Counted from the first letter of the stretch, positions 4,374-29,546 are shown. The stretch is DNA of 32,000 nucleotides from Candidatus Electrothrix yaqonensis (GCA_047651235.1 CP178758.1:1770001-1802000), one strand, 5' to 3'. The notes: generated by a model not told the origin, from the sequence alone. Numbers and translations: made by a program.

Positions 4374-4518
4374 CGATTGATTCGTATATATCGGATTTCA
4401 GCGTCCAGCGCAGCAATAATCAGACAGCAGGTTCGGAAAACGCATCTTTCGGGAGCAAATTATCAGGACGCTTCATGCAGGGTCTGCACCCTGATTCACC
4501 CCTGACAAATTTCATTCT

Positions 4519-10833: not shown

Positions 10834-10923
10834 GGTTATTTCTCCCTTGTTCCTTTGAAATCATGTATAAAAATCAAAACAGTATAGGAATTATCAATAT
10901 CAACTTGTTACAGCAATATGGCA

Positions 10924-10935
10924 AAGGCCGGAGTC
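10924..10935. repeat. Candidate distal att repeat (copy of a tRNA-Leu 3-prime segment)
   Basis: AAGGCCGGAGTC is identical to 29469-29480. The flanking tggcA versus tgccG gives 15/17 identity. Confidence 0.5.
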
Positions 10936-10990
10936 ACACAAAACAGTTCATAGTTCCGTAATAAAAAGTAAAATCCAACCAAATAAAAAT

Positions 10991-11719: not shown

Positions 11720-12251
11720 TTCAGAGATTATATTCAGACGAATGGGGGCCGATGAAGATCGGCCCCTTTTTTATTGCGGCAGTCAAGACCTGAATGAATT
11801 CTTTCATGAAGATTCCAAGGAGGCGGACAGGGAGCTTGTGGCCGTAACCTATGCCGTGGAAATAGACGGTTCGACAGTCGCCTTTTTCTGTGTCTCAAAC
11901 GACTCCATACGGGCGGAAGATACCACACGCTCAAGATTCAAAAAGATACGCTCCAGCATTCCGGCAGCCAAAAGATATGCAAATATGCCAGCGGTGAAAA
12001 TCGGGCGGCTTGCAACGAATTCCGACTTTCAGAGTCAGGGAATAGGCACCCGGATTCTTGATCTTATCAAGGTGTGGTTTACGGAAGGGAATAAAACAGG
12101 CTGCCGTTTCATTATCGTGGATGCGGCAAATAATGAAAGGACGCTGGAATTCTACAAACGGAACGGCTTTCAGTTTCTTGACATTCGCCCGGAAGCCGCT
12201 GAAGACAGAACCCGGCTGATGTTCTTTGACCTTCTGACCTTCAGAGAATAA
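11712..12251 (+). CDS. GNAT family N-acetyltransferase (TacT/AtaT-like toxin candidate)
   Basis: 179 aa with an acetyl-CoA motif A region (KIGRLATNSDFQSQGIGTRILDLI) and a C-terminal EFYKRNGFQFL. It is translationally coupled to the small upstream ORF. Confidence 0.8.
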   Translation: MDSSEIIFRRMGADEDRPLFYCGSQDLNEFFHEDSKEADRELVAVTYAVEIDGSTVAFFCVSNDSIRAEDTTRSRFKKIRSSIPAAKRYANMPAVKIGRLATNSDFQSQGIGTRILDLIKVWFTEGNKTGCRFIIVDAANNERTLEFYKRNGFQFLDIRPEAAEDRTRLMFFDLLTFRE

Positions 12252-14548: not shown

Positions 14549-15340
14549 TCACCCTCCCGGCGAATCCGCAGCCCGAATTTTTACCCCGTCGCTCTTTCTC
14601 TCTTTGCGAACATGCGCCCCTTGAGTCTGTGCAGCATCAAGCACCGATGCGCTGAACCGTTGAAGAGAAACGCTTTTCCTTTCGTTTTCCTGACACCACG
14701 TCAGATAATTGGGATACAGGCGTTCATCGGAATCCTCATAAGAAACAGCTCCGTATTCCCGGCGTTCCTTTTTTGTGCCGACCTGTACCGCTGCATCAGG
14801 ATCGGGCAAGAGGTTTTCCGCCATCCAGGCAAAAACAGGATTGTTGAACATGGCCGCATCCAGATTGGCCCGGCGTACCCGTTCCGGCATAACCCTGAAA
14901 ATATCCGTGACCTCTTCACGGGAGAGCTTCAAAGCCCAATTGATGATACCCGGTGCCTCGTTGTATAGAATCGTTTCCTCTCCGCCGCGTTTATCCCATG
15001 CGGCCCGCTCTTCCTTTGTTATCCTTCTGTCGAATTCAAGGGTTATTCTTCTGCGCTCAAGGCCGCTTGTATAATCCGTGCTGGCAAGCCGTTCATTGCT
15101 CATCATAAGGGTTTGCCCCTCATAGATGAATGAACCTTCCTGCTGTTTGTTCTTGCGCTCCAGCCGTAGCGGGTCTTGTCCGGTCATGGCCTTCAGTTGG
15201 CTGACCGAACCGCCGTACTTGTCCGCCTCTTCAATGGCGGTTAACCGTTTGCCGTGGATATTGGCGGTTTCAAATTTATTGGTTTCCAGTTCCTTCAGAC
15301 TGGTTGTGGTGGTGTTAACCTCGTCGATTGGTTTTATAAC
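14549..15340 (-). pseudogene. C-terminal fragment of the AEP-primase/SF3-helicase (P4-alpha/D5-like), separated from its N-terminal part by a 9-kb insertion
   Basis: The open frame runs from the TAA at 15343-15341. It reads (VIKPID)EVNTTTTSLKELETNKFETANIHGKRLTAIEEADKYGGSVSQLKAMTGQDPLRLERKNKQQEGSFIYEGQTLMMSNE... This is the post-Walker-A/Walker-B segment expected right after GPAGTGKST, which ends the ORF at 24370-26595. Confidence 0.8.
15329..15337. repeat. Left terminal inverted-repeat arm (TGGTTTTAT) of the nested element
   Basis: It is the exact reverse complement of 24359-24367. Confidence 0.5.
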
Positions 15341-15354
15341 TTATCTTTTCGGGT

Positions 15355-16143
15355 TCACCTGGAAGTATAGGTTCGAGAAAAATGATTAAAAACGGCGGGT
15401 TTCCAGGAGGCGAGCTTGTCCGCCCGACATATGGTGACCACTTCGACTTTCCTACATCCTGCCTTTTTCAGAACCTTTGCGCATTCATTTGCAGTTGCCC
15501 CAGTGGTAAAAACATCATCCAAAAGCAGGATTTTTTTCTCTAAAATCTCAGCAGGGTGCTTAACAATAAAACTGTCTTTCAGATTTCTCCGGCGTTCCTT
15601 GCCGCTTAAATTCGTCTGACTGGGGGTATCTCTTTGCCGGGCCAATATATCGAACCGTATCCTTTCCTTTTCTTCTGCAAAGAGTTCCCTCACCAACAGC
15701 AGAGCCTGATTGAAACCGCGCTTCCGTAACCTTTTGACATGGAGAGGAACCGGGTGGATAATGTCGGGGACTTCCAAGTCATTGACAACAGAACTCTGCT
15801 CCCATAAATATCGAAAAGTCGAAAGCCCGGTCAATCTCCCGGTATATTTCAACCTGTGGATCAACCCGGCAACAACTTCCTCATAAAGAACGAGCGACCG
15901 GGCCTTATCAAATTCCCAAGGTGATTCCAAACAGTCCACACAGAGGTGGTTTTCTCTGCCGGTGGAAAATCCTCTGCCGCAGCAAGAGCAGTAAGGGGAA
16001 GAGATAAACTGCAACCGGGCAAAGCAGTCTTCACATAACCGCCCGCCCCTATTCCCGGTCAATGCCGTGCATGAAGGACAAGACGGCGGAAAGATGAGAT
16101 TGAGAGAGGCAGAGAAAAAAGAGTGAAAAAAGTCTTTGTTCAT
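15355..16143 (-). CDS. ComF family protein (ComFC/GntX-like phosphoribosyltransferase with an N-terminal Cys-rich zinc finger)
   Basis: 262 aa with the cysteine clusters CPSC...CEDC...CSCCG...CVDC. It has VPLHVKRLRKRGFNQA and the PRPP-binding loop ILLLDDVFTTGATANE. Confidence 0.85.
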   Translation of the reverse strand: MNKDFFHSFFSASLNLIFPPSCPSCTALTGNRGGRLCEDCFARLQFISSPYCSCCGRGFSTGRENHLCVDCLESPWEFDKARSLVLYEEVVAGLIHRLKYTGRLTGLSTFRYLWEQSSVVNDLEVPDIIHPVPLHVKRLRKRGFNQALLLVRELFAEEKERIRFDILARQRDTPSQTNLSGKERRRNLKDSFIVKHPAEILEKKILLLDDVFTTGATANECAKVLKKAGCRKVEVVTICRADKLASWKPAVFNHFSRTYTSR

Positions 16144-16146
16144 CTA

Positions 16147-16344
16147 TTACCTTTTCCGGCAGAGCAGGGGCAGCCGATCAATATACTTCACAGTTTCATT
16201 TCGAATGCATAACCCGCCTGCCCGTTGACCTCCACGGTCTGAATAAGAAAGGGGCGGGCCGCCAGTTCCCCCTAAAATGAAATCACAGCCTTTTGCAGCT
16301 TGGATTTGTTCTGAATCACCGTAAACAAGAATCGGGTCACGCAC
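16147..16344 (-). CDS. Hypothetical 65-aa protein immediately upstream of the ComF-like gene
   Basis: It has a GTG start, and its stop lies 3 nt before the ComF ATG. No motif was recognised (VYGDSEQIQAAKGCDFILGGTGGPP). Confidence 0.3.
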   Translation of the reverse strand: MRDPILVYGDSEQIQAAKGCDFILGGTGGPPLSYSDRGGQRAGGLCIRNETVKYIDRLPLLCRKR

Positions 16345-16393
16345 TAAACACGTTCCCGGTTACAGAATCAGAAATATTCATAGATTCTATTTA

Positions 16394-17137
16394 TTACGCT
16401 TTAGCACAAAGATAAATATTGGCGGTAGAACGTATAGGTATATTATCCGGGGTAGAAATAATTCGAAGACCGGCTTTTTTTATCAAATTTAGCATACTGC
16501 TATGTTCTACTGGGTACAAACACCAACATGCTGAATACTTTTCATTAGTTTGTTTATCTTCAAGCCTAAAATCTTGTCGAAATATATTATTTTCAATATT
16601 GCATTTTGTATAACATGCATACTTATTTTTTATATTTTTGTCTAATTTCTTCCAATTATAACATTCTTTTTGTTTGAAATGCGAATTTACAATAATTATA
16701 ACTCCCGAACTATGTAAAAACTTACTGCAATTCATTAAACATGAGAGCCTGTCTTTATCATTCGTAAGATGAAGAAACATGCTACCTGCAAAATAAACAA
16801 TGGAAAATCTATTAATCAAATCTCCATGTGGAGGATTAACCATATCGCCTTGTACTACCTGAACATTACCCACAAGAGTAACGCCTTTTTTCTTTATTTT
16901 ATTTTTTAATACTGTTAGCATATTGAAAGAACTATCTAGTCCTACAATATTATACCCCTTACCAGCCAGTTCAAGCAGTTTTAATCCGGTACCACACCCA
17001 ATCTCCAGAATGGGATCTCCATATAACTTTGCACAAAAAGTCAATAAATCTGAATCCAGTCCTTTTAGACCCAAACTTAAAATTATTTCATCATAACAGT
17101 TACTAAAGAACAAATCGTTATATAGATTATTATTCAT
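16394..17137 (-). CDS. Class I SAM-dependent methyltransferase
   Basis: 247 aa with motif I (ILEIGCGTGLKLLELA), post-I (VGLDSS), VVQGDM and IVYFAGSMFLHL. The DNA is visibly AT-rich. Confidence 0.85.
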   Translation of the reverse strand: MNNNLYNDLFFSNCYDEIILSLGLKGLDSDLLTFCAKLYGDPILEIGCGTGLKLLELAGKGYNIVGLDSSFNMLTVLKNKIKKKGVTLVGNVQVVQGDMVNPPHGDLINRFSIVYFAGSMFLHLTNDKDRLSCLMNCSKFLHSSGVIIIVNSHFKQKECYNWKKLDKNIKNKYACYTKCNIENNIFRQDFRLEDKQTNEKYSACWCLYPVEHSSMLNLIKKAGLRIISTPDNIPIRSTANIYLCAKA

Positions 17138-17143
17138 AGCAAC

Positions 17144-17926
17144 TTAATCCTTACCGCTACCATTAGTGTTTAATAATCGCTCAAGAAGCGGCAAAAACAG
17201 CATTTTCACCGTCGAGTTTAGTTTTTCTTCTCGACCTTTAGAAAACATATTAGGATCTGAAGAATCCATATATAGTATAGCCTTTGCATATTCTCCAGCC
17301 TGCCCGATAGGGAATGCATAAAAAGATTTTCTATCTTGAGTAAGTCGAGAAATTTCATCTTCAGTGAAAGCCCATCGACTCTGATAATCATCAGTAATCT
17401 TTACCTCGTCAGGAATGCTGTATAGTTGAGGGCGACGCGTCCTAAAAGCCTGCCCTGTAATACCTTGAGTAAAAACAAATTTTCTTCCACGTCCTGTTCT
17501 GGCCGGATAATAATCTGTTACCTGTTCATATGTCTGAGTTTTTTGGTTTCTAATATGATGTAACACCACTCTTGAAGAACGATCTAACTCAAGAATTTTA
17601 AAAATGACAGGAAGGAGTTCTGCAATAAATCGTATTCGCTCGTAATATTTAGGCGTTATACTTACAAAAACCAATAGTGCATTAGAAAAAATAAAACTTA
17701 TAAAAAAATTCCAATGAACGCCCTTTGCCAGTGGGGTAGGGGTCGCAAGGAACAGTCCCAAAAACAGCGACGAAACAGCAGTAAATACAACTGTTAGAAC
17801 AGTGCGATACCTTACGATAGACAGCTGAATGTCATAGAATAAAATTTTTAACCGCATAACAATGAAATCTGCTTTAACTGATTTGAAATAAGAAAAATTA
17901 CACAAACAAGATTGAAAATTAACCAT
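17144..17926 (-). CDS. Membrane-anchored GAF-like domain protein (start uncertain: ATG 17926 or ATG 17857; the track TTG at 18007 is unlikely)
   Basis: It has two TM helices (TVLTVVFTAVSSLFLGLFLA and HWNFFISFIFSNALLVFVSI). A GAF-like pattern follows (GITGQAFRTRRPQLYSIPDE...SFYAFPIGQAGEYAKAILYMDS). ATG 17926 overlaps the stop of the 46-aa ORF (ATGGTTAA). Confidence 0.55.
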   Translation of the reverse strand: MVNFQSCLCNFSYFKSVKADFIVMRLKILFYDIQLSIVRYRTVLTVVFTAVSSLFLGLFLATPTPLAKGVHWNFFISFIFSNALLVFVSITPKYYERIRFIAELLPVIFKILELDRSSRVVLHHIRNQKTQTYEQVTDYYPARTGRGRKFVFTQGITGQAFRTRRPQLYSIPDEVKITDDYQSRWAFTEDEISRLTQDRKSFYAFPIGQAGEYAKAILYMDSSDPNMFSKGREEKLNSTVKMLFLPLLERLLNTNGSGKD

Positions 17927-18059
17927 GATGAAATTTAAAAGTAAACACAAACCTTTGATTTTCTGCAAACCCGTATACAACAACCGCCAGCAAAAGGAAA
18001 ATTGCAACGTTACCTACCCTGTTATAATTCTGCTTGAACTTACTTATTTCTTTTGACAT
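17919..18059 (-). CDS. 46-aa single-TM peptide
   Basis: ATG 18059 is preceded by GGAGGG. It reads MSKEISKFKQNYNRVGNVAIFLLLAVVVYGFAENQRFVFTFKFHHG. It is below the ORF-track cutoff and is the first gene of the AT-rich cassette. Confidence 0.45.
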   Translation of the reverse strand: MSKEISKFKQNYNRVGNVAIFLLLAVVVYGFAENQRFVFTFKFHHG

Positions 18060-18418
18060 TCATCCCTCCATCGTTTAGCCGGACAACAGCAGTTCAATAT
18101 TACTCATTTATCAATTGGTGATAGCAATCATATACCCGAAAATCTTATCAAGAATGGCTCGCTATCCCCACCCGCTACAGGGGCAAGCCAGTCTCTGAAT
18201 ATCCGGCCAAGAACAACGAAAATTTTATTTTCTATATCTCACCCCATATACCAGTAGAGAACCCACTGATTTTGCCCCGTAAGCTATTTCTGATCTCCCA
18301 TGTATAGGGTACTCTATAGCCGGAAAGAACGGATATAAAGACAATTGCACTATGCCGTAGACGGGGGCCGAAATAAGGCGGATTCTTACCAGATTGGAGA
18401 CCGTTATTCAGGAAGCCT

Positions 18419-19291
18419 TCAAGACTGAGAACTTTTTCTACCCTCCAAAGAATTCAGACCGAAAGCCCGTGTCCCAAGTTTTTCCTTATACAGATTTTCG
18501 TAATTGATAACTTCTTTATTGGTAAGAGTTTTGGGAAGCGTCCGCAAGATTGTAAATTGAAAGTTTTTTGCCGCCTTCGAGTCTTGAGCCAATATCTTTT
18601 TCAGCAAAACGTTTCCGCCGTGACCGGTCGTTGCATATTCTTTCCAGCGGCCCAAAATACCTCTTTTACCATAAGCGGAACCGACATATTGCTTCCCGCT
18701 TGCCGTATCCATAATCAGGTAAACCCCGGCCACAGAGGATAACATCGTGTGCCATTCCCGGTTTGCTTCAGGGGCATTTATTATCGTTTGTAATTCATCA
18801 TAACGAAGAACAAAATCAAGATAACCGGGGAACTCCTTCACATATCCAGCCGGAAGTATTTCCGTTACTTCCCTCTCACTCATCCATTGGTGCCACGCAA
18901 GTGCAGATTTTCCCCAATTAATCACAACACGATTTTTCAGATCATCAAATCCGTTGACCTTCTCTAACTCATAATGCACGGCGTTTTCTAGGCCGATATA
19001 ACAATCTGAATATATAAAATTATCCGGCAGAGGAACTTCTGGTGCAGGGCATTTTTTGAGGACTTTGTAGACCTCGAAAAACAAGGCTTTCATATTTTCC
19101 TGCCCGATAAATACAACGAGATAACCGCGTTCAGGAAAGATAGGCTTATCTTGGTAGGATTGATAAATTTTCAACTGATCTTTCCGGATCAGCTCATTGA
19201 TATCATATCGTTTATCCTGGTGGCGAATGAATTTAATTTTTGCGTCTAAATCCAAGCCACGTTCTTTCAGCAGCTCAAGAATCCCGATCAT
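18419..19291 (-). CDS. GIY-YIG nuclease family protein with a ~190-aa N-terminal domain of unknown function
   Basis: I prefer ATG 19291; the track uses TTG 19303. The C-terminus reads GVYLIMDTASGKQYVGSAYGKRGILGRWKEYATTGHGGNVLL...NFQFTILR...YKEKLGTRAFGLN, which contains the GIY...YIG/R/E/N motifs. Confidence 0.85.
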   Translation of the reverse strand: MIGILELLKERGLDLDAKIKFIRHQDKRYDINELIRKDQLKIYQSYQDKPIFPERGYLVVFIGQENMKALFFEVYKVLKKCPAPEVPLPDNFIYSDCYIGLENAVHYELEKVNGFDDLKNRVVINWGKSALAWHQWMSEREVTEILPAGYVKEFPGYLDFVLRYDELQTIINAPEANREWHTMLSSVAGVYLIMDTASGKQYVGSAYGKRGILGRWKEYATTGHGGNVLLKKILAQDSKAAKNFQFTILRTLPKTLTNKEVINYENLYKEKLGTRAFGLNSLEGRKSSQS

Positions 19292-19835
19292 TGGTTTCCC
19301 CAAAAAAGAAGGGCGCGACTAATGCCTCGCCCATCCAAGGTACGCCAATACCGATCTAGGAACAAAACAGAAGACGCACCCATTTCGGGTGCGTTTCCGT
19401 CAGATTCGATTCCTAGATTAAAAAATTGGCGTTTTTTGGATGGAACGACTCTGCGAAATACGCAAAGATATGTTTGTGTTACTATATTATTCAGTTACAT
19501 AGGCGACTCGCACAGATTGTTGTAAAAAATTACCTTCAGTCAAAACTACAACCGAATTAGACAACGCTATCTCGATAAAGTCAAACAATTTCAATTCAGT
19601 TAAGAGCCGCAAACATAGGAAGGCTGTTTCACTGACCAAATTATTCTTCCGCTCACCTTGTGATTTTATCTTCCGTCAACCTCTCCACAATTTACCGACT
19701 CAACTTTACCTTTTATCTAAGTCGCAACATCAGTTATTAAAAATGAATCTAAAGAAAAATTTTAAAAAATACTTTACGACACCTACCAAATAGGGTTATA
19801 AGTAAAAATAAAAACTTTAGCGAAGAATTGACAAC

Positions 19836-20537
19836 ATGGAAGCATACGGATATTTACGGGTCAGTACCAAGGGCCAGATAGACAAGGACGGTTTCCGCCG
19901 TCAACGGGACGCAATCAGGAGGTACGCCGCCTCTTCAAAAATCACCATTCCGAAATACTACAAGGAAGAAGGCGTTTCAGGAACAAAGGGGGAAGATGCC
20001 CGCCCCGCTTTTCAGGAAATGATCACCGACATCCTTTCCAACGGAATCAGAACCGTGATTGTTGAACGGCTCGACCGGCTCGCAAGGGAGTACACTATTC
20101 AGGAACAACTCCTCATCTATCTTGCAAGCAAAGGAATCACTCTCATAAACGCTTCCACCGGGGAAAACATCACTAAAGCAATCAACGCCGACCCGATGAA
20201 AAAGGCCATAATCCAGATACAGGGTGTATTCTCCGAACTGGAGAAATCGTTATTGGTCAAGCGGCTCAAAAAGGGCAGAGAACAGAAAAAGGCCGAAACC
20301 GGAAAGTGCGAAGGTGCAAAAGGTTGGGATGAGATCAACCCGGAAAGGAAGGCGGAGGTTTTGAAACTGGTTCGCCGGTTACGGAGGAAGCCCAGAGGGG
20401 GCGGACGGCAGAAGAGCTATCAGGCCATAGCCGACCACCTCAACAAAGAAGGGATCGAAACATTGCGGGGCGGGACGTGGAGTGCTCAATTAGTCAGAGC
20501 CTTTCACCAGAACGGGGCGGCCAGTACCAGAAAGTAG
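19836..20537 (+). CDS. Small serine recombinase (resolvase/invertase type)
   Basis: 233 aa. It has the YGYLRVSTKGQ catalytic Ser motif and VIVERLDRLAREY. A C-terminal HTH-like segment follows (SYQAIADHLNKEGIETLRGGTWSAQLV). Confidence 0.9.
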   Translation: MEAYGYLRVSTKGQIDKDGFRRQRDAIRRYAASSKITIPKYYKEEGVSGTKGEDARPAFQEMITDILSNGIRTVIVERLDRLAREYTIQEQLLIYLASKGITLINASTGENITKAINADPMKKAIIQIQGVFSELEKSLLVKRLKKGREQKKAETGKCEGAKGWDEINPERKAEVLKLVRRLRRKPRGGGRQKSYQAIADHLNKEGIETLRGGTWSAQLVRAFHQNGAASTRK

Positions 20538-20788
20538 TCGAACCACACCGGGAACCCATCTGTTTTGACCCGATAGCCACGAACCGTCCCCGTTCCATAG
20601 GAAGCCCCACATCGGACATAAAACACGAAATACGGCCAAAGAAACGAAGCGGGCTTTTTACTCTGAACCAGTTTATAATACTTGTAATGTTGGGCGGATA
20701 GGCTCGCTACCGAAAAGGAGGAATCCGAACCTCTCTTCCGCCCAATTTTTCTTTCGGATCACCATAACCGCTATCGGAGGCGGGCATA

Positions 20789-22228
20789 ATGGCAAAGCAT
20801 AAACGGGCCATAATAGACAAGCATGTCTTCAAAAAGAAAAGAGTTAGAAACATACCAAGACGACGAAAGAAACAGCAAGACTACTTTAATTCCGATTCCA
20901 TATCAAAAAATCTTGAAATCAACGCCCCGGCAAACATAAGCCTCTCATTTCGGTTTAACAACTCCGCAGAGTATAAACCCAATCTGATTTTCTTTCAGGA
21001 CAGCCCTTATCTTGAATCAGTAAATCAGCTTTATTCCGATTGGGCCGATAATAACCGTTGGCAATCAAGACCCGCGCAAGAGCGGAAAAGGTACCTTATA
21101 TCTGTGGTCGCAAACCTTTTAACGCTTCCGAGAACTTCAGGATCACAAATCAGAAGACCGCTTTCTATCAATATCGACTCCAATCAACGTACCAGTCAAC
21201 TTACTGATGTTATCCATTTTCTCAGAGACGAAAAATACATCAACTTTCTACCCGGTTTCAATTGCCACAACGGCAAATCAAAAACATCAAAAATATACCC
21301 CACAGAAATTTTCGATTCTGCTTTTCCCCCATTTGCCGATCCCTGTCAGGCTAATCCCCATATCACTATCCCTGATTCGGAGCTTATCAGAAAAAACCGG
21401 GATCGAAAACCCGTCGAACTTACCGAAACCGACATTAAAAATACAAAAAGAATACGCAAAAAACTTCAACGAATCAACCAAGTCAACCATAGTCACCATA
21501 TCGTTATCAAGAAAAATAAATCAGAGCTTCCTTGCTGCACAAAACTTTGCGTAGTTTACAGCCCAACCCTCAAACGGGGCGGGCGGCTCTATGCGTCCAG
21601 GAACAACCATAGTTATCAGAACTGTTCCAAGGAGGAAAGAGCTTGTATATTCATAGACAACGAACCGACCGTAGAACCTGACTATTCCGCTTTCCACCCC
21701 CATATGCTTTACGCCGAAAAGGGGATTCAATACGAGGGGAAACCATACGACTTGTCAGAGGAATTACCGGAGTTTCGAGACGACTACAAGGAAACGGAAA
21801 AGGAAGAGAGAAAGAAAATGCAAAGAAAGTTATCCAAGCGTGCCGTATTTATTGCCATTAACGCGAAAAACGATAACCTAATATCAACTCTTTCCAAGTA
21901 TGTTTTGAAAAACAATATATCCCTTTGTATTTACAGTAAAAAGAACTACAGGAAAGGATTGTATGGGCGAGTTATAGAGGCGGTAAAGAAGAAGCATAGC
22001 CTCATTAGTGAATCCTTCAATACAGATGCCGGAGCACAACTTCAAAACAAGGACGGGAAAATGGCCCTCTATATTTGCGATTACTTCGCTAAAAAAGACA
22101 TTCCCATTCTTCCTGTCCACGACAGTTTCATAGTAGCGAAGAAACATGAAAGCCTTTTACGGAAAATCATGGAAGCGACCTATAAGAAATACAACCACGG
22201 ATTTACATGTCCCATAACCACGGAGTGA
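20789..22228 (+). CDS. Minimal family-A-type (Pol I / T7 RNAP superfamily, TV-Pol-like) polymerase candidate
   Basis: 479 aa. The C-terminal 220 aa carry the following motifs in canonical order. Pre-motif A: RGGRLYA (aa 263-269) ... YQNCS ... EERACIF. Motif A: EPDYSAFHPHMLY (D298; compare Pol I DYSQIELR). Motif B: RKLSKRAVFIAINAK (K350; compare RRSAKAINFGLIYG and T7 TKRSVMTLAYGS). Then QNKDGKMALYI (compare T7 SQDGSHLRK). Motif C: ILPVHDSFIV (H444-D445; compare T7 LIHDSFGT and Pol I QVHDE). Confidence 0.6.
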   Translation: MAKHKRAIIDKHVFKKKRVRNIPRRRKKQQDYFNSDSISKNLEINAPANISLSFRFNNSAEYKPNLIFFQDSPYLESVNQLYSDWADNNRWQSRPAQERKRYLISVVANLLTLPRTSGSQIRRPLSINIDSNQRTSQLTDVIHFLRDEKYINFLPGFNCHNGKSKTSKIYPTEIFDSAFPPFADPCQANPHITIPDSELIRKNRDRKPVELTETDIKNTKRIRKKLQRINQVNHSHHIVIKKNKSELPCCTKLCVVYSPTLKRGGRLYASRNNHSYQNCSKEERACIFIDNEPTVEPDYSAFHPHMLYAEKGIQYEGKPYDLSEELPEFRDDYKETEKEERKKMQRKLSKRAVFIAINAKNDNLISTLSKYVLKNNISLCIYSKKNYRKGLYGRVIEAVKKKHSLISESFNTDAGAQLQNKDGKMALYICDYFAKKDIPILPVHDSFIVAKKHESLLRKIMEATYKKYNHGFTCPITTE

Positions 22229-22264
22229 ACTAGAGCGAAAAAAGGAGAAAATATACTTACATTC

Positions 22265-22370
22265 CAAATCATTATAATCAAAACAGAAAACTTATAATAT
22301 GGATATTTAGGAGTATAATATATAAATAATAATAATTATATAATAATAAAAAATAATAAAATATATGTAT
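22265..22370. other. Extremely AT-rich tract with (AAT)n-like low complexity; candidate origin/DNA-unwinding element or promoter cluster
   Basis: 22314-22366 is an uninterrupted 53-nt run of A/T (tataatatataaataataataattatataataataaaaaataataaaatatat). It lies directly downstream of the polymerase-like gene and upstream of the LSR gene. Confidence 0.4.
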
Positions 22371-22620
22371 CGAACTCCCAAGTTTAGTTCAGAGTCTGAA
22401 AAATCCATAAGACTGAAAACCGGGTTTATGGAAATTGAAATTCCAAACGGAAGAGCTATCCAAAAGAGGAAAGCCCATATTGAACCTCATTTAAAACGAT
22501 GCAAAGGGGTTTGTTTTTTCTTTTCCGGCCTTGTTCTATAGGTAGGGGGCAAACAAGCCGAAAACGGTTGAAAAGGACAAATCAAGAGTTTCTAAACTTA
22601 TCCCAACTCAAGGAAAAAAC

Positions 22621-24468
22621 ATGAATAAAGCTGTAGGATATGTACGGGTCTCTACGCACCACCAAGTTAAAGGCGGGGAATCTCTCACCACTCAGAGAAA
22701 AGATCTCAACAGTTACGCCAAGAAGAATGAATATGAGCTGGTTAAAATTTATGCCGATGAAGGTATTTCGGGTGGTTCGGTAGAAAAGCGGCCCGGTCTC
22801 CGAGCCTTGCTCAAGGACGCCAGAAATCAAAGTTTTTCCCTTGTCCTTGTCAACCGCCTTTCCCGGTTGGGCAGAAACGCCAGAGAACTGCTCAACAACG
22901 TTCAGTTGCTCAAAGAGGCCGGGATAAGTGTTGTCTTCCTGAAGGAGAATATCGACCTTTCCAACGCCTACGGCCAATTCATGCTCACGATGCTTGCCGC
23001 TATGGCGGAACTTGAAAAGGATATTCTGGGAGAATCTTCGGTTGAGAACAAAATTGCATTGGCTAAGAAAGGAGTCCCATCCATTGGTAAGTACCCTTTC
23101 GGGCGGCGATACAATCGTGAAACGGAAGAGTGGTATTTTGATCCACCCGATATCAAAGAAGTGGTGAATGATATTGCGGATCGTTACCTGAATGGAGAAG
23201 GGCTGAGGGATATTGCAGACACCATTGATCCGAAATACCAACTTACTTACTCGAATATTTTAAAAGTGTTCCACGGAAGAGCCGGAAACACTTGGGAGCT
23301 GCAATTTAAGAAAGAAGACAAACCCATTGTGTTTGAAATCCCACGGCTACTGAGTGATGAAAAGATCGAAGCAGTGATGCAAAAAATAGACTTCAACAGA
23401 ACCTTCACCAAATCAGACCGCAAAAGCTATACATTTCTGCTTACCGGGTTTGCCCGCTGTATGGACTGCGGAACGGTATTAACGGCCCAACATCAGAAAA
23501 GTAAGCCTCGAAAGAAGACCCACAAGGGCTACACATACAAGTATTACCGACATCGGGCTGGAAAAAGAGAAAAATGCAAGGGCTTGACCTCGATAAAAAT
23601 TGAAAAGTTAGAAAATGCTGTTCTGAACGCTGTCTGGGAAAATATGAGTGATGAGGACAGCGGATTTGATGAAGCTTGGACCGATAACTACCCGGATCAA
23701 AGCAGGATAGGCGAATTGAAAAACCGGATAAAGGAAAACCAAAAAAAGCTGAACAAGGCGGAAGCTGACCGGGATAAACTTGTTGATGCACTTCTGAAGG
23801 GTATCTTGACCGAGGATGCGATAAAAAAGAAAAACGATATTCTCTCCAATGAAATATCACGGTTGACCGCATTATTGACCAAGGATGAACAGAAATTGTC
23901 CCGGATGCCCTCTGTTGAAGAGGTCAAAGGAAAGGAAGAAATGCTCAAACTCGCCTTTCAGGATTATTACTATTCACGGGAGAGGTTCGACTCAATGACC
24001 TTTGAGGAGAAGCGGGCTTTGATGTTTTCTATTTTTGACGGGGTGGATGAAGACGGAGACCCTTTGGGAGTCTATGTAAAAAGGATAACTCCAATCGGTG
24101 AGTTACCCGTTCGGTTTGAAATCTATATCAATGCTCGTTTTTTTGCCGGGTATGTTGCCCCTGATACCGTTGATGATGACGATTACGGAAGCGACTCTGA
24201 AAAGGAGGGCAATAGTGATTCATCTTCCGGTTCCTCTAAAGTAACAACGCTGCAAGATGGACGTGTGTTCTCTGCTTCTGTGCCCTCAAACGGAGCGGGG
24301 CAATGCGGATTCCTTGACTCAATACAGATCCCATCGAAATTACAGAAGGATAATTTTCATAAAACCAGTTTACGTCATCTTTTCATTGCCCACCAATTGA
24401 AAAGCCAATCTTCCCAAGGTGCTTTTTCCGGTGCCTGCCGGGCCGATGAGGTGGAGAAAGACCTGTAA
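22621..24468 (+). CDS. Large serine recombinase (integrase) of the nested element
   Basis: 615 aa with the N-terminal resolvase domain (VGYVRVSTHHQ...LVLVNRLSRLGRN). It also has a recombinase domain, a zinc ribbon (CMDCG...C) and a long coiled coil (KLNKAEADRDKLVDALLKG...). The last ~30 codons lie beyond the predicted element junction, antisense to the primase gene. Confidence 0.9.
   Translation: MNKAVGYVRVSTHHQVKGGESLTTQRKDLNSYAKKNEYELVKIYADEGISGGSVEKRPGLRALLKDARNQSFSLVLVNRLSRLGRNARELLNNVQLLKEAGISVVFLKENIDLSNAYGQFMLTMLAAMAELEKDILGESSVENKIALAKKGVPSIGKYPFGRRYNRETEEWYFDPPDIKEVVNDIADRYLNGEGLRDIADTIDPKYQLTYSNILKVFHGRAGNTWELQFKKEDKPIVFEIPRLLSDEKIEAVMQKIDFNRTFTKSDRKSYTFLLTGFARCMDCGTVLTAQHQKSKPRKKTHKGYTYKYYRHRAGKREKCKGLTSIKIEKLENAVLNAVWENMSDEDSGFDEAWTDNYPDQSRIGELKNRIKENQKKLNKAEADRDKLVDALLKGILTEDAIKKKNDILSNEISRLTALLTKDEQKLSRMPSVEEVKGKEEMLKLAFQDYYYSRERFDSMTFEEKRALMFSIFDGVDEDGDPLGVYVKRITPIGELPVRFEIYINARFFAGYVAPDTVDDDDYGSDSEKEGNSDSSSGSSKVTTLQDGRVFSASVPSNGAGQCGFLDSIQIPSKLQKDNFHKTSLRHLFIAHQLKSQSSQGAFSGACRADEVEKDL
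24359..24367. repeat. Right terminal inverted-repeat arm (ATAAAACCA) of the nested element
   Basis: It is the exact reverse complement of 15329-15337. Confidence 0.5.
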
Positions 24469-26595
24469 ATCAGGGCGACCTGTGAACAATGCATTGAACC
24501 ATGCCTGAATCAAACGGACAGACTCCGGGTCATCATCCAGAGCTGTTGTAAGCCATGCAAGGAAGTCCGGGCAGTCTGCATCAGGAGAGTATTCATAAGG
24601 CAATACCCAGGTATGGGCATTTTCCGCCGTTACGGGCACAAGCTTCCCTGTGTTCTGATCAAGCAGACCGTTTTGAAAGGGGATGGTGCCGGGCAGGGGA
24701 TCGGGTAGCGGGTTCCGTCCGCTCTTCTGCAAGAGCTGGCTTATTCCGTTTTGGTAATTGTTGCTGAAACCGAGTCCGGCAGTTGCCGTGTAGAGCAGAG
24801 CGTTCAGGGCACCCTCAAACTCTGAAGCGGAACATTTTTGCCAGCAGCATTCATCAAAACAGTACCAGCACAGCCCGGACATGCTGAAAGCGTACAGGCC
24901 GTGCAGGGTTTCAGCGAATAATGCCGCCGCTTCCGATTCCGGGGCCGGTCTGTCTCCTTTTTGGGTTTCAATAACCATAACCCCTTGAAGATGAAGAACT
25001 TTTTCTTTTAATGAAGAGGGTAATGAAGAATAAGGTATTGATAATGAAGAAGATGAAGGCTGTGAAGACTGAAAACTCTTCCTTACAGGAGAAACCCTGC
25101 TTATATCCCTGTCCAGCTCCTTCAGCAGTACGGCTCCGTTTGCGGCCTTGAGGTCTTTTCGCACCCGCATAAACCGGGCCTTGTCCTTCTGCTTCAGGCG
25201 GGCCAGCATCTTCAGCGCATCCTCTGCAAAGGGTGCCCCGCAATCCTCCTTTGTCTGTTGGATGAGTTCCGGCAGGGCTGTATCATAATCAATGGGTTTC
25301 TCTGCTCCGTACCGCCTGAACCGGTATTTTATGCCGCCGTGGGCCTGACTGTAGATCAAAGGGTTCTGGCCCTCGTTCCAGTAGAAAACAGCCTTGCTCA
25401 TGCTGCCCCCGTCGTATTCTGGTTCCAGAGGATCGGCACAAGACTTGTTATCAAACGCCTGCCCATTGTCCAGCACAGAGGCCACGCTGACCGGCTCTTT
25501 TTCATGAGCAAACAACAACAAATCATCATCAACAAGGATATGGTGCTGTCGGGCCTTGACCGTCTCCCGTGCCTGCTCCATGCTGACCTTTCCGCCTGAT
25601 TCTGAACTGAGCTTTTCTGCTTCCTGCTCAAGGTAGGCCCCTTTAATGCGCTCCTGATCCGGGGCACCTTTCGCTTTCAGTTGGTGGATAATCTCCTGAT
25701 ACGTCTTTTCCTCTTCCGGGTTAAGATCGTTCAGGGCTTGGGTATCCAATAACCGGCCCGGCTGATACTCCGAGGCGGGCAACCTTTGTTCAAGGCCCTT
25801 ATCACAGACAGCACCGGCCACAAAATCCAATCTCTCAGGGGAGGCAACCAGCAAATCAACCAGGGTACGCACCAACACGGCACCCGACCGGCTGAACTCC
25901 ACCCGGCCATATCCGGCAAGTATCAAGCGTTTTCCCAAAACATCCAGAAAACGGGGCGTGTCCGCTGCATTCTGCGGGAACAGATAGAGGTGAAAGCCTG
26001 CGCTTTTTCCTCTCAGCTCTTTTCCTGTGTCCGTATCATGGATACAGGAGGAAGTCGAATAAACGGCAACCTGTGCCGCTTCTTTTATGGACTCAAAAAA
26101 GCCCGCAATGGTGTTTATAAGCTCTTTCGGGCTGTATGCCTTCAGTGCCTTCTCAGAATCAAGGGCAACCGCGTTTTTACGGGCCTTGTCATGATCCAGC
26201 ATGAGCAGGCCCGGCCCGTCTGGATAGTGAAAGAAATCCTTTGTTCTGGAGATGATCGGCAAGCCCTGTTCATCAGCCTGCGGACTCTCCCCCGGCCTTG
26301 TCTTCAGCCGCTTTCCGCTGACTATCAGGGCTTTGTCGTAATCACTCACCCCGTGGACAATGGCCTGATTGCTTTGCAATCCTTGCAGGAAGGGGCCGAA
26401 TTGCTCCGGCTTTATGCGCACCGTTTCAGCCCGGCCCCTACTCATCCGACATTCTGAGCTGTCTTTTTCAATGCAGCCGTTTACCCGCTTCATGCGCTTT
26501 GTCAAAATGCCCTGTGTTTTGTGCATCAGGGTAAAAGACACTTTCTGTTCTTTACCTTTGCCCGGTGCATGGGCTTTGTTTTCCGCTAAAGTCAT
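24370..26595 (-). pseudogene. N-terminal fragment of the AEP-primase/SF3-helicase (P4-alpha/D5-like), truncated right after Walker A
   Basis: 741-aa ORF with AEP motifs (LLMLDHD, GFHLYLF, RLDFVAG) and a D5_N-like region. It ends ...VFLHLIGPAGTGKSTLGRLAFQLVGNEKMT*, so the helicase core is missing here and is found at 14549-15340. Confidence 0.85.
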
Positions 26596-26846
26596 GATTC
26601 AGCCCTCCCTGTAATCTTTGACATTGAGGGCAAAGCGGGATAAACAGAGAACAGCCTGATCCTGTCAGAGGAAGGGTGAGCATTCCGGGGCCGACTGCCT
26701 GCCAGCTTGACAGCCTCGGAATGCGCTTTCCTGTTGATACTTCGCTTGAATCTGTGTATAATCTTTTTAGTTGACCTTGCCCGGTTATGTTTTAGCCGCT
26801 GATCCCGTCCCGGATCATGCGGCTTTTCTCTTTCTCTTGCCTTCAT
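26592..26846 (-). CDS. Highly basic 84-aa hypothetical protein
   Basis: ATGA overlaps at both ends (26843-26846 with alpA and 26592-26595 with the primase) argue for real, translationally coupled expression. No motif was recognised. Confidence 0.5.
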   Translation of the reverse strand: MKAREREKPHDPGRDQRLKHNRARSTKKIIHRFKRSINRKAHSEAVKLAGSRPRNAHPSSDRIRLFSVYPALPSMSKITGRAES

Positions 26847-27052
26847 GCTGCCGCCTCCTGTTCAACCTTCGGCAATCCGTCAATCCATTCCTGAATGTCA
26901 TCGGATCGCCACGCCACCGAACGACTTCCCAGCCGAACCGCTGCCGGAAAGTCTCCGGTCTTGATTCTGGCATAAATGGCAGATTTCTTTAATCCGGTGG
27001 CCTGTTCCACCTGCCCCAATCTGAGCAGAACTGCTTTCATTGCTGCTTCCAT
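26843..27052 (-). CDS. alpA: AlpA family transcriptional regulator/excisionase-like protein
   Basis: 69 aa with the motif LLRLGQVEQATGLKKSAIYARIKTGDFPAAVRLGSRSVAWRSDDIQEWI, typical of AlpA/Prophage CP4-57 regulatory proteins. Confidence 0.85.
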   Translation of the reverse strand: MEAAMKAVLLRLGQVEQATGLKKSAIYARIKTGDFPAAVRLGSRSVAWRSDDIQEWIDGLPKVEQEAAA

Positions 27053-27141
27053 GTTTGTACCTCTTGGTTGTTATGGTGCGTTACGCACCGTTATGGATTT
27101 CGTTTCATCTTTCTTCACTATAAGAGGTTGTTTTAAAAAAG

Positions 27142-27188
27142 AAAGCCGCCAAACCAGCAAAATCAAGAGCTGTTGGTTTGGCGGCTTT
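27142..27188 (-). terminator. Rho-independent terminator (15-bp stem), potentially bidirectional
   Basis: AAAGCCGCCAAACCA-N17-TGGTTTGGCGGCTTT. On the minus strand it is followed by CTTTTTTAAAA, and on the plus strand by AATTTCTTC. Confidence 0.6.
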
Positions 27189-27220
27189 AATTTCTTCTGT
27201 TTCAAGGCGTTACCTTGAAG

Positions 27221-27259
27221 AAAAAAGAACCAGCAGAACCAGCGTTGTTACTGGTTCTG
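27221..27259 (-). terminator. Rho-independent terminator after the 27284 gene
   Basis: CAGAACCAG-N8-CTGGTTCTG, followed on the minus strand by CTGGTTCTTTTTTC. Confidence 0.6.
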
Positions 27260-27283
27260 TCAGGCGACAATGTTTGTTAAAGG

Positions 27284-28021
27284 CTAGTTCTTCATCTTAG
27301 GTGGAAGCCCTTTGTGGATTTGCAGAGCCATTGGTCTATTTATTCCCCGCTCTTTGGCCTGCTGAACGACATCATCACGGGTGTACTTCAGGTATTCTTC
27401 TCTGCCTTCACAGGGCATAGCCTCCATGACTAAGGAGCAGCACAGCTCAAATGCTTTGGGAAGTTGATCTTTGAGTGTATTCACACTCTTTGTTATTGCG
27501 CTTTTTTCCTGCCCCTTCAATCCATCCGGGTACATTTTAGGGGTGAGTAATTTCAAAATTTCAGCCAGAGAATAATCTGAAGTTTTTTCTACCAATGATT
27601 CACTCTGTTCATCATCAGGGTGCATTCGTCCGGTTCTTTTAAGGGGATAATTATCCTTGAGCCATGATCGGAAGGAATGAGCCTCCAAGAAAAATTGCAA
27701 AGACAATATATAAGGTGAAAACGTATTAAGATAACTCTTAATAATCCCTTTTCGGCTATCGTCACACTCTGTGTATTCTCTTATTTCTACCGGATTACCC
27801 AGAGATTCTTGATAAGAATACAGCAGCTTATTGAGAACAACAGGGGCATCATTACGCTTAATTTTAAAATTAATTATTCCTTTATCAATAGCGGAAGCAA
27901 GTCTTTCTTTTTTCACAGCGTTTTCACCGTAAAACATACTGAACAATTTCCATCCTACCCATTCAACCTCTTCAAGCATGAACAGGTATTCTTCATAAGG
28001 CACATCTTTTTGAGATTTCAT
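27284..28021 (-). CDS. Island hypothetical protein (245 aa from ATG 28021; the track uses TTG 28039)
   Basis: Long ORF between int and alpA, followed by two terminators. No motif was recognised. Confidence 0.55.
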   Translation of the reverse strand: MKSQKDVPYEEYLFMLEEVEWVGWKLFSMFYGENAVKKERLASAIDKGIINFKIKRNDAPVVLNKLLYSYQESLGNPVEIREYTECDDSRKGIIKSYLNTFSPYILSLQFFLEAHSFRSWLKDNYPLKRTGRMHPDDEQSESLVEKTSDYSLAEILKLLTPKMYPDGLKGQEKSAITKSVNTLKDQLPKAFELCCSLVMEAMPCEGREEYLKYTRDDVVQQAKERGINRPMALQIHKGLPPKMKN

Positions 28022-28053
28022 TAAAACTATCCTGTGCAATCAAAAGAAAACAC

Positions 28054-29271
28054 TCAGGCAGCCGCAATACTTGTGCTCTGCTCCATTTCCTGTAATAAAT
28101 CCCCCCACCACTGCATCAGCTCCCGCCGCTGTTCAAGGTACTCGCTCCGATGGTATGCGGCCCTCACCTTGTTGCGCTGCTCATGAGCAAGGGCCTTTTC
28201 GATTACATCACCGTCAAAGCCTGATTCATTGGCTATGGTGGAGAAGACCGCCCGGAAGCCGTGAACCGTGGCCCTTGAATGGTAGCCCATACGATACAGG
28301 GCATAGAGCATGGTATTCTCTGAAAGCGGTTTAACTCCATCCCGACCGGGAAAGACAAGGCCCTCTTTGCCGTGAAGCCTCCCCATCTGCTCAATGATCG
28401 CCACGGCCTGCGTTGACAAGGGCACATTATGCGGATTATCCATTTTCATACGCTTGGCCGGTATGCGCCACAAGGCGGTGTCCAGGTTGATTTCATCCCA
28501 GGTAGCCCCCCGCGTTTCTCCGCTTCTGGCTGCTGTTAAGATGGTGAAGCGCAAGGCCGCTTTCGTGGTAATATCAATATCACCCTGCGCAAGGGTACGC
28601 ATGAACTCCGGCATCTCCTCCCGTGAAAGAGCGGCCCTATGTACCACCTTGCGCGTTTTCAAGGCCCCCTGCATATCAGCAGCCGGGTTATATGTGGCCC
28701 TGCCGGTCTGGACGGCAAAACGAAAGACTGCATTCATTCGTTGTAAAACCTTATGGGAAACTTCCAAGGCTCCCCGGCTCTCAATCTTCTTTACCACCTC
28801 AAGAACCATTGGCGGGGTAATCGCCTCAATCTGACTTTCTCCGATAAAGGGGAAAGCGTCACGCTCAAGAGTGCCCTGAACAGCCCTTGCATGGCCCCGG
28901 CTCCATCGCTCCCCTTGCTGCTCTATCCATTCACGGGCCACGGCTTCAAAGCTGTTTTGTGCCAGCTTACGTTCAGCGTGTTGTTGTTCAATGGCTGCTT
29001 GTTGTTCTTTTTGTCGCTCATGGGACGGATTTTTTCCCGCCTTGACCTGTTCCCGTGCTTCGGCTCTTGCCTTGCGGGCTTGTTCAAGGCTCATATCGGG
29101 ATACTCACCAAGAACACAGGTTGATTCTTTTCGATTCAGCTTGAACCGATACCGCCATGTTCTTTTCCCAGAGGTAGACACATGGAGATGAAGCCCCAGG
29201 CCGTCCGGCAGTTTGTAGGGTTTGTTTTTGGGTGATGCTTTGCGGACTTGAACAGCTGTAAGTTTTGGCAT
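28054..29271 (-). CDS. int: Tyrosine-type integrase, P4-like (DUF4102 N-domain plus phage integrase catalytic domain)
   Basis: I chose the start at ATG 29271. It reads MPKLTAVQVRKASPKNKPYKLPDGLGLHLHVSTSGKRTWRYRFK... Catalytic region: TAARSGETRGATWDEI, HGFRAVFST, LAHEQRNKVRAAYHRSEY. It lies 190 nt from the tRNA 3-prime end. Confidence 0.95.
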   Translation of the reverse strand: MPKLTAVQVRKASPKNKPYKLPDGLGLHLHVSTSGKRTWRYRFKLNRKESTCVLGEYPDMSLEQARKARAEAREQVKAGKNPSHERQKEQQAAIEQQHAERKLAQNSFEAVAREWIEQQGERWSRGHARAVQGTLERDAFPFIGESQIEAITPPMVLEVVKKIESRGALEVSHKVLQRMNAVFRFAVQTGRATYNPAADMQGALKTRKVVHRAALSREEMPEFMRTLAQGDIDITTKAALRFTILTAARSGETRGATWDEINLDTALWRIPAKRMKMDNPHNVPLSTQAVAIIEQMGRLHGKEGLVFPGRDGVKPLSENTMLYALYRMGYHSRATVHGFRAVFSTIANESGFDGDVIEKALAHEQRNKVRAAYHRSEYLEQRRELMQWWGDLLQEMEQSTSIAAA

Positions 29272-29460
29272 GACAGAGCCTGTTGAGGAAAGAGGGTATG
29301 TGGATTCGAGTGAGCTATACCCTCTTTTGTACCCTCTTTGTGTGGCGGATGTCAACGGAAAATAATGGACGAATCTGGAAGGCAAGACGCAAGAAATCCC
29401 GCTAACCAGTTAAGGTTGCGGGCTTTAATGGACTTCTATGGATGCTACTATACTAAAAAA

Positions 29461-29546
29461 TGGTGCCGAAGGCCGGAGTCGAACCGGCACGGGTGTAACC
29501 CACTACCCCCTCAAGATAGCGTGTCTACCAATTCCACCACTTCGGC
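29461..29546 (-). tRNA. tRNA-Leu (anticodon GAG), type II with a long variable arm, CCA encoded
   Basis: The minus strand reads GCCGAAGTGGTGGAATTGGTAGACACGCTATCTTGAGGGGGTAGTGGGTTACACCCGTGCCGGTTCGACTCCGGCCTTCGGCACCA. It has a 7-bp acceptor stem, anticodon stem CTATC/GGTAG with loop TTGAGGG, and a GGTTCGA T-loop. It closely parallels E. coli tRNA-Leu. Confidence 0.9.
29469..29480. repeat. Proximal att repeat within the tRNA-Leu 3-prime half
   Basis: AAGGCCGGAGTC is identical to 10924-10935. Confidence 0.5.

Follow-up and report, generated by a model that had tools for sequence, protein, structure and literature searches.

Several described elements that are bounded by large serine recombinases (LSRs) interrupt a gene. 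For skin (SpoIVCA, in sigK), SPbeta (SprA, in spsM) and the fdxN element (XisF), excision is part of development and the cell needs the interrupted gene once the element has left. The A118/phi10403S integrase of Listeria phages acts inside the competence gene comK, with short attachment (att) sites, a 2-bp core and exact restoration of the gene. We analyzed a 32,000-nucleotide stretch of DNA (GCA_047651235.1, CP178758.1:1770001-1802000, listed under Candidatus Electrothrix yaqonensis; hereafter, the window) in which a P4/D5-type primase-helicase gene is split by foreign DNA. The insertion is very probably a 9,065-bp non-conjugative, non-phage integrative element, put by LSR-mediated site-specific recombination into codon 739 of the primase-helicase gene of a tRNA-Leu island in Candidatus Electrothrix sp. 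YB6.

The element shares with the A118/phi10403S system the LSR, the insertion inside a protein gene (comF for most of its relatives), the short att sites, the 2-bp core and the exact restoration. Unlike A118, it is not a phage, lies in an island primase, has attP inside the recombinase open reading frame (ORF) and comes with a small-resolvase partner and defense cargo. XisF of the fdxN element is the best NCBIfam match of the LSR (5.6e-41, 141 bits); the score is far under the 375-bit equivalog cutoff, so the LSR is not a XisF orthologue. In contrast to skin, SPbeta and fdxN, an intact duplicate of the interrupted gene is present and no developmental link is evident. SCCmec is also a small non-phage, non-conjugative cassette with accessory cargo and two serine recombinase genes that is inserted site-specifically in a gene. 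In SCCmec, two large recombinases, CcrA and CcrB, work jointly at the rlmH 3' end; in the present element, one large recombinase is accompanied by one of the resolvase type with 233 amino acids (aa), and the gene is disrupted in its middle. Nesting inside a gene of another mobile element is known from HE-PICI in prophage late genes (PMC10111431). HE-PICI use a tyrosine integrase clade and exploit the regulation of the host element, whereas the outer island here is P4-like, the inner element has an LSR and no regulatory coupling is evident.

A further likeness is to the archaeal SSV-type 'suicidal' tyrosine integrases (PMC7253208), in which the att site lies within the integrase frame, integration parts the gene into two inactive pieces and the translated att site is a conserved peptide. 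That attP-in-ORF trait has been described as 'so far restricted to archaea' (PMC7253208). Despite it, the LSR of the window is not an SSV-type member: it is a serine recombinase from which only the last 17-18 residues (17 in the window) are detached, its recognizable domains stay intact and 'suicide' is not implied. As a nested integrative element the insertion is of a known kind. What is distinctive in its clade is the attP in the recombinase ORF with the C-terminus across the junction, the preference for comF and look-alike sites, the module of small resolvase, int-alpA RNA and upstream gene, and the defense cargo.

The interrupted primase-helicase gene and its attachment sites

The N side of the gene is a minus-strand ORF of 741 aa (24370-26595) whose last residues before the stop are ...GPAGTGKSTLGRLAFQLVGNEKMT (...HLIGPAGTGKSTLGRLAFQLVGNEKMT), and the minus-strand frame from 15340 down to 14549 translates as VIKPIDEVNTTTTSLKELETNKFETANIHGKRL... 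(VIKPIDEVNTTTTSLKELETNKFETANIHGKRLTAIEEADKYGG...). In the N fragment, Pfam detected D5_N; the C fragment matched DUF5906 over positions 24-114 of the 114 in the profile. Since the C fragment matches DUF5906 only from position 24, the Walker A segment of the superfamily 3 NTPase domain is missing there; the break point lies 13 codons past the Walker A lysine. The guanine-cytosine (GC) content is 0.418 in the element versus 0.52 in both primase fragments. Uninterrupted homologues (P0001, P0003, P0005 and P0006, with 85, 69, 67 and 65% identity, respectively) carry D5_N and DUF5906 in one polypeptide, as a P4-alpha/D5-type primase-helicase requires. An earlier note on this DNA had proposed one primase-helicase gene split by ~9 kb of foreign DNA carrying an LSR, within another island. 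The Pfam halves, the lower GC content and the intact homologues bear out the split gene, and the tRNA-Leu island with its tyrosine integrase, AlpA and primase bears out the nesting. The uninterrupted alleles by which the note proposed to check this do exist, as the four homologues and an identical copy in the same genome, so the fragments are not two genes that are naturally separate.

The crossover was placed using the DNA of two intact genes, L001 (85% protein identity) and L002. On the coding strand, homology to the N flank runs through GAAAA and homology to the C flank begins at AAC, so the two overlap in exactly AA, which is the plus-strand TT at the core of attL and attR (Table 1). The bases bordering TT differ between the junctions (G/C and A/T), and the block of identity is thus exactly 2 bp; an overlap of this length is the hallmark of serine recombinases. 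Rebuilding attP gives a 44-bp quasi-palindrome, ATAAAACCA-N12-TT-N12-TGGTTTTAT (plus strand, in full: ATAATTTTC-ATAAAACCA-GTTTACGTCATC-TT-AACCTCGTCGAT-TGGTTTTAT-AACTT). Its 9-bp inverted repeat has perfect arms at +/-13 to 21, exactly 12 nt off TT to the left and to the right; a perfect 9-mer would fall at a symmetric offset by chance with a probability of ~8e-5 with 22 offsets allowed for, and the dyad symmetry of attP covers 17/30 positions (p = 2e-4). The rebuilt attB in the primase (...GGTGGTG-TT-TTCATTGCC...) is weakly symmetric (10/30 positions). The sites have the features of LSR-type att sites, i.e., they are short, at about 40-50 bp, with imperfect dyad symmetry about a 2-bp core and without long identity between attP and attB.

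The N fragment is 100% identical to a Candidatus Electrothrix sp. YB6 protein on a 3.74-Mb contig, so the DNA comes from a cable bacterium. Its 90%-identity cluster includes P0211 (XOF35049.1), a 993-aa 'phage/plasmid primase, P4 family' encoded on the same YB6 contig. Excision in silico at TT yields a 993-aa ORF (...LVGNENTTTTSLKEL...) that is identical to P0211 over 993/993 residues. An empty-site allele is present in the same genome, and it fits the TT model alone. With this second, uninterrupted and 100%-identical primase copy, the island, or at least the primase gene, is duplicated and a free attB is on hand. The 0 differences over 993 residues imply that either the insertion or the duplication is recent, and both primase fragments are free of other damage, which speaks for a recent insertion.

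The predicted mover of the element is the 615-aa LSR encoded at its right end. Pfam Resolvase (PF00239, 3.3e-39) covers residues 4-152 and Zn_ribbon_recom (PF13408, 3.1e-9) residues 273-338, with C280, C283 and C319 conserved. Eleven homologues share the motif R9-V10-S11-T12 without change and 71 share R9-V10-S11, Ser11 being the nucleophilic serine. No phage structural, lysis or conjugation genes were found in the element. As in characterized LSRs, the recombinase dimers would bind the attP, which the circular form would bear within the 3' end of the recombinase gene, and the attB of the primase, and cut both at TT with a 2-nt stagger; a 180-degree rotation of subunits and religation would then give attL and attR. 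The non-palindromic TT core would set the orientation, and excision would need a directionality factor. As a consequence of the insertion, the primase of this island copy is now truncated at the break point past Walker A.

These results bear on the annotation of the locus. What was annotated as a 741-aa 'hypothetical protein' and a 262-aa 'DUF5906 protein' is one primase in two halves, and the 615-aa recombinase bears 28 spurious host-encoded residues. The C fragment was deposited as XOF35413.1, a 262-aa 'DUF5906 domain-containing protein' (14549-15337, minus strand) that starts with MKPIDEV; this start is an ATA codon in the attP arm, and the first four residues (ATA start, AAA, CCA, ATC) are derived from the element and not from the primase. 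In other hits (P0028-P0064), the N-terminal ~430 residues of the primase recur joined to other helicase or ATPase modules (DUF3987, AAA_25 and other DUF5906 types), which indicates a likely modular shuffling of the N-terminal domain among Desulfobulbaceae islands.

Target genes of related elements and competing explanations

We searched for relatives, i.e., recombinases with 56-73% identity, and placed them on contigs. The family scan gave three true relatives among 14 loci from genome contigs and one among 52 from metagenome contigs, and no relatives were found in viral contigs by the LSR profile or by the left-end pattern. Both ends are known for two elements only (those of the window and of L005), and a further contig, L080, has a native attP. 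Where the relatives' recombinase genes end (3'), an arm of the form [A/T]TAAA[A/T][C/A]C[A/T] is followed by 12 nt and the core, which is TT at six loci, TA at two and AT at one. Ten relatives have this arrangement: L005, L007, L008, L010 and L076 conserve the arm, the 12-nt spacer and the core, and L074, L075, L077, L079 and L080 have it with variant arms or cores. The left end of L005, TT-AACGTCGGCGAT-TGGTTTTAT-AATTTGTCTTTTCGGGTTC, aligns with that of the window, with the same P' arm and spacing.

The usual target of this LSR family is comF, which was hit in 8 of the 12 members; cas2, hepT and the island primase were also interrupted (Table 1). In L005, cas2 stands between cas1 and the rest of the CRISPR-Cas locus including Cas5d, Csd1 and Cas7. 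A literature search, which was not exhaustive, found no paper tying comFC to serine recombinases. The insertion in L075 fuses the recombinase to the C-terminal two-thirds of the HepT toxin, and the fusion was automatically annotated as a 662-aa recombinase with a HepT domain. Two candidate explanations or signals were set aside. The 'comF flank' of relatives as an inversion product of attP and the element's own comF site was rejected, given that the gene after comF in L007 is an unrelated host gene in convergent orientation, and an antisense 5' part of comF is missing there. A distal motif shared by attB and attP (TGGT/ACCA, at differing spacings) was not reproduced in L005 and was dropped.

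The site in the primase, read in the sense of the gene, is TTCAATTGGTGGGCAATGAA-AA-CACCACCACAACCAGTCTGA. The primase attB is alike at 21/40 positions, and the cas2 site at 19/40, to a composite comF attB assembled from the upstream half of L077 and the downstream half of L010. A score as high as that of the primase occurs at only 24 of 63,916 window positions, and the two top scores (27 and 25) are probably those of the comF site that the element itself carries. The sense-strand core is AA in primase and cas2 and TT in comF, so the elements in primase and cas2 lie opposite to their target gene, whereas most comF insertions are co-directional. We infer that the primase may have been chosen as a look-alike of the comF site (codons NE/N TTTT versus DDV(F)/TTG of the phosphoribosyl pyrophosphate (PRPP) loop, the slash marking the core, which is inverted), with the core setting the polarity.

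The element's own ComF consists of a double zinc ribbon and a phosphoribosyltransferase domain, and in its C-terminus it shares 79% identity with the comF fragment that flanks the L007 element. A family-type attB, GATGATGTT-TT-TACCACTGG, is found inside this gene, with the core at 15509-15510, ~190 bp from the left end of the element. The gene is the very one targeted by the relatives, and its GC content is 0.477 versus 0.31-0.36 in its neighbors. In L005, a 3' remnant of comF (...CTGNECAKALKSVGAQRIEIL...) lies inside the element (4466-4555, minus strand), between the UzuA homologue and the small resolvase, and starts from the usual crossover position. The remnant may be a fossil junction, with cargo gained by the capture of former flanking DNA.

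Of the competing explanations, an improbable one is a programmed and reversible gene switch, as for skin in sigK, SPbeta in spsM or the A118-type phage in comK, in which regulated excision would rebuild the primase for the replication of the island. Excision restores the primase exactly, both fragments and the recombinase ORF are intact, and the relatives also sit inside genes that are restored upon excision; however, an identical intact primase is already in the genome, so no function hangs on excision, and a recent insertion explains the intact fragments equally. Moreover, the targets (comF, cas2, hepT and primase) track similarity to the comF site and not a common function, and no directionality factor or regulatory link was found. 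We also give a low probability to adaptive warfare among mobile elements, by which genes for replication or defense of rivals (primase, cas2 and hepT) are disabled. Three of the four target types are indeed genes of mobile elements or defense, and the element carries defense cargo, but the commonest target, comF (8/12), is neither, and the sites outside comF resemble comF half-sites, pointing, in a small sample, to look-alike recognition.

It is very unlikely that the insertion is an assembly artifact or chimera, or that the 233-aa resolvase or the tyrosine integrase of the island moved it. The genome is labeled as a metagenome-assembled genome (MAG) and two further recombinases are nearby, but the junctions are precise to the base, attP is symmetric and the same architecture is seen in independent assemblies. 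As to other enzymes, an arm of attP is embedded in the LSR gene and varies along with it, L074 and L075 have no small resolvase upstream of their LSR, and a tyrosine integrase would leave an identical core of >2 bp. There is next to no chance that the crossover was at a CG core in CGTC, at the 8-bp direct repeat ATCTTTTC or at a shared AT, three models of the earlier note: its signals are all where it placed them (CGTC at 15322-15325 and 24373-24376, TGGTTTTAT at 15329-15337, ATAAAACCA at 24359-24367, and ATCTTTTC at 15343-15350 and 24377-24384) and the AT model is in frame, but CG and ATCTTTTC each cause a frameshift, the relatives keep their conserved core at the TT position and not at CG, and AT yields LVGNEKIDEVNTTTT, five residues longer than all intact homologues (LVG-xx-NxTTT) and unlike the LVGNENTTTT of the same-genome copy. 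The claim that only AT restores an in-frame gene was mistaken, as TT does so too and matches that copy. The choice that the note could not make from the sequence alone is settled by the intact homologues for TT, the only model giving P0211 over 993/993 residues; TT lies 7 to 11 bp farther out at each junction than any crossover position that the note considered. The 9-bp inverted repeat of its attP-like site is real, with a spacer of 12+2+12 nt instead of the 5+2+5 it gave, and the CGTC and ATCTTTTC strings are parts of the attP arms and the B' flank, not crossover marks.

Some points nevertheless speak against LSR-mediated integration at a comF look-alike as set out here. The Pfam 'Recombinase' domain (PF07508) was not detected in the LSR or its close clade; it is found in more distant matches (P0168 onward), and residues 155-270 are conserved. 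No candidate for a recombination directionality factor was identified, and excision and the circular form in this organism are predicted from the sequence. The empty site in the same genome is proven from the protein sequence, with DNA support from the homologues L001 and L002. The mimicry of comF rests on a composite consensus from few sites, the orientation of which was picked after seeing the data. Finally, the identical attB in the same genome is still unoccupied, which means that integration does not fill every site or that the element may by now have lost its mobility.

A recombinase reading frame that continues across attP

The LSR ORF is open through the att core in 9/9 loci. From NARFFAG to the core there are 40-79 codons of poor conservation; at the nine loci this stretch is free of in-frame stops, versus 1-11 stops in the other two frames. 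The invariant K of an [FYH]-K-T motif near the end of the LSR is encoded by the ATAAAACC arm, and past the core the C-termini diverge in sequence and length. When the frame is read across the core of attP, it continues in the window with L and then NLVDWFYNLSFRVHLEV to a stop (604 aa in total) and in L005 with L and then NVGDWFYNLSFRVRADI to a stop. In L080, the native attP contig, whose recombinase is 45% identical and whose TA core is flanked at 12 nt by symmetric arms of its own, it continues with V and then NNKSTSYKNMTFKVRAVI to a stop. A comparison of the tail codons revealed synonymous changes at N, F and V and multi-nucleotide conservative changes (CGG to AAG, TCT to ACC), a pattern that indicates constraint on the tail peptide and not on the DNA alone.

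A YKT-type motif was found within the last 45 residues in 45/71 full-length members of the clade, and F[KR][VI][RKH] within the last 16 residues in 8/71, mostly 18 residues past YKT and nowhere else in 38,459 positions. The peptide class seen in the window, L005 and L080 forms the C-terminus of 7-8 of the 71 members. In a search of 50%-identity representatives, the YKT/tail trait faded outside the nearest subclade and no further examples of the attP form were found. We conclude that the native C-terminus of the LSR is, as predicted from these reading frames, encoded across attP and would be replaced by integration. In the window, the native 17-residue peptide is left at the other end of the element, and 28 codons from the antisense strand of the primase are read instead.

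A more tentative possibility, which we hold to be somewhat less than even, is that the recombinase gene of this clade is complete only in the excised circle, with the peptide N..Y.N[LM][ST]F[KR]V... and its stop swapped for arbitrary host residues on integration. This would be a bacterial serine counterpart of the archaeal 'suicidal' tyrosine integrases, and could be a built-in sensor of the integration state that alters activity, stability or directionality. In a literature search that was not exhaustive, no LSR turned up that has been reported to carry attP within its own ORF. If confirmed, the C-terminus across attP would extend to bacterial serine integrases a trait thought to be archaeal and specific to tyrosine enzymes. 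It would also offer a simple route to couple the properties of a recombinase with its integration state, which is relevant to the engineering of serine integrases.

A tail-like ending was also seen in L007, where the read-through recombinase ORF of 709 aa ends with YFYFKVRNQTC and a stop (12095-12130), matching the tail motif. It lies ~350 nt past the core of that element, antisense to a flavodiiron-like gene, and could be fortuitous or mark where a second element has its left end.

Cargo, feature coordinates and the outer island

Between its ends, the element encodes defense and accessory genes (Table 1). The 294-aa protein is UzuA, with a predicted anti-phage function; the profile match is full-length (residues 5-284 versus profile positions 2-276 of 278), and L005 has a homologue with 73% identity. 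Other defense cargo in relatives includes a type I restriction-modification system, Abi_C, ThsB-TIR and a caspase-like protease in L007, and restriction-modification in L079. The locus defines attP and attB to the base for an LSR clade not described before, which ferries defense genes (Uzume here; restriction-modification, TIR and caspase-like in relatives).

The small serine recombinase is 78-80% identical in L005, L007 and L076, and is also present in L079. The int-alpA RNA also occurs in L079 (9906-9974; 44.6 bits) and L007 (8362-8430; 39.9 bits), and in the window and both of these loci the motif stands immediately before the gene next upstream of the LSR; it may be a leader or regulator of the LSR operon. 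In the window, the gene preceding the LSR encodes a 479-aa protein with no sequence match in PDB or Pfam. Its AlphaFold2 model has a pLDDT of 83.7, and the top Foldseek matches in PDB are all family-A DNA polymerases (E ~5e-6, prob 1.0), with TM values of just 0.2-0.3. Residues resembling motifs A, B and C are kept (D298, R346, K350, H444 and D445), and homologues adjoin the recombinase in L077 and L079. Distant homologues were found in ~100 phage genomes of Vibrio, Aeromonas and Pseudoalteromonas, often two per genome.

Table 1 Positions of the element, its sites and genes, and target genes of the related elements (a slash within a motif marks the att core).
Feature	Position	Strand	Evidence or remark
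Inserted element	15317..24381 (equivalently 15315-24379, TT core being at both junctions)	+	9,065 bp
attL	15294..15337	+	B half-site 15294-15314, TT core 15315-15316, P' half-site 15317-15337 ending in the TGGTTTTAT arm
attR	24359..24402	+	P half-site 24359-24379 with the ATAAAACCA arm at its start, TT core 24380-24381, B' half-site 24382-24402
Primase-helicase C fragment	14549..15314	-	native residues 740-993; = P0212; core splits codon 739
Primase-helicase N fragment	24382..26595	-	native residues 1-738; 741-aa ORF, ending KMT and stop inside the element; = P0002, 100% identical
Left-end module	15317..15370	+	LSR C-terminal peptide NLVDWFYNLSFRVHLEV and stop, in the LSR frame only across attP; predicted 604-aa circular-form protein
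ComF-family phosphoribosyltransferase, intact	15355..16143	-	DZR_2 + Pribosyltran (Pfam); comF/GntX models 1e-30 to 1e-34, under curated cutoffs
SAM-dependent methyltransferase, 247 aa	16394..17137	-	Methyltransf_25 3e-14; GC 0.31
287-aa ORF, hydrophobic N-terminus	17144..18007	-	no family match in Pfam, PADLOC, PHROGs, NCBIfam
UzuA (Uzume anti-phage defense, predicted), GIY-YIG-type, 294 aa	18419..19303	-	PADLOC PDLC03973 4e-96
Small serine recombinase, resolvase/invertase type, 233 aa	19836..20537	+	Pfam Resolvase 3e-32
int-alpA RNA motif RF02996	20691..20758	+	Rfam 42.7 bits versus gathering score 35.8
479-aa compact family-A polymerase-like protein	20789..22228	+	directly upstream of LSR; phrog_4756 1e-55
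LSR, 615 aa as integrated	22621..24468	+	residues 1-586 + core codon Leu587 from element; 588-615 from primase antisense strand
Outer island landmarks	26843..29546	-	tRNA-Leu 29461-29546, tyrosine integrase 28054-29385, AlpA 26843-27052
Target comF, PRPP loop (DDV-x/TTG)	L007, L076, L008/L010, L074, L079; inferred from C-terminal peptides: P0093, P0098, P0101		flank past core encodes (F/L/Y)TTG(T/S)T..EC..L
Target comF, same site, opposite orientation	L077		AT core; antisense flank ...LLIDDV
Target cas2	L005 965-11218, ~10.2-kb element in Desulfobulbaceae MAG		TT excision restores 96-aa Cas2 (Pfam 1-73 of 74)
Target hepT	L075 4566-6554		recombinase ORF continues in frame as HepT (Pfam positions 35-117 of 120)
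Target island primase	window		TT junctions, 993/993 restoration

The outer tRNA-Leu island is bordered by housekeeping genes, with secG, tpiA and pgk to the right and yebC and pyr genes to the left. For the left border, the 3' end of tRNA-Leu gave no long repeat, only a 12-nt match at 10924 by yebC. This imperfect match to the 3' part of tRNA-Leu (AAGGCCGGAGTC, 10917-10940) is the sole candidate for the far border, and with it the island would be ~18.5 kb long including the insert.

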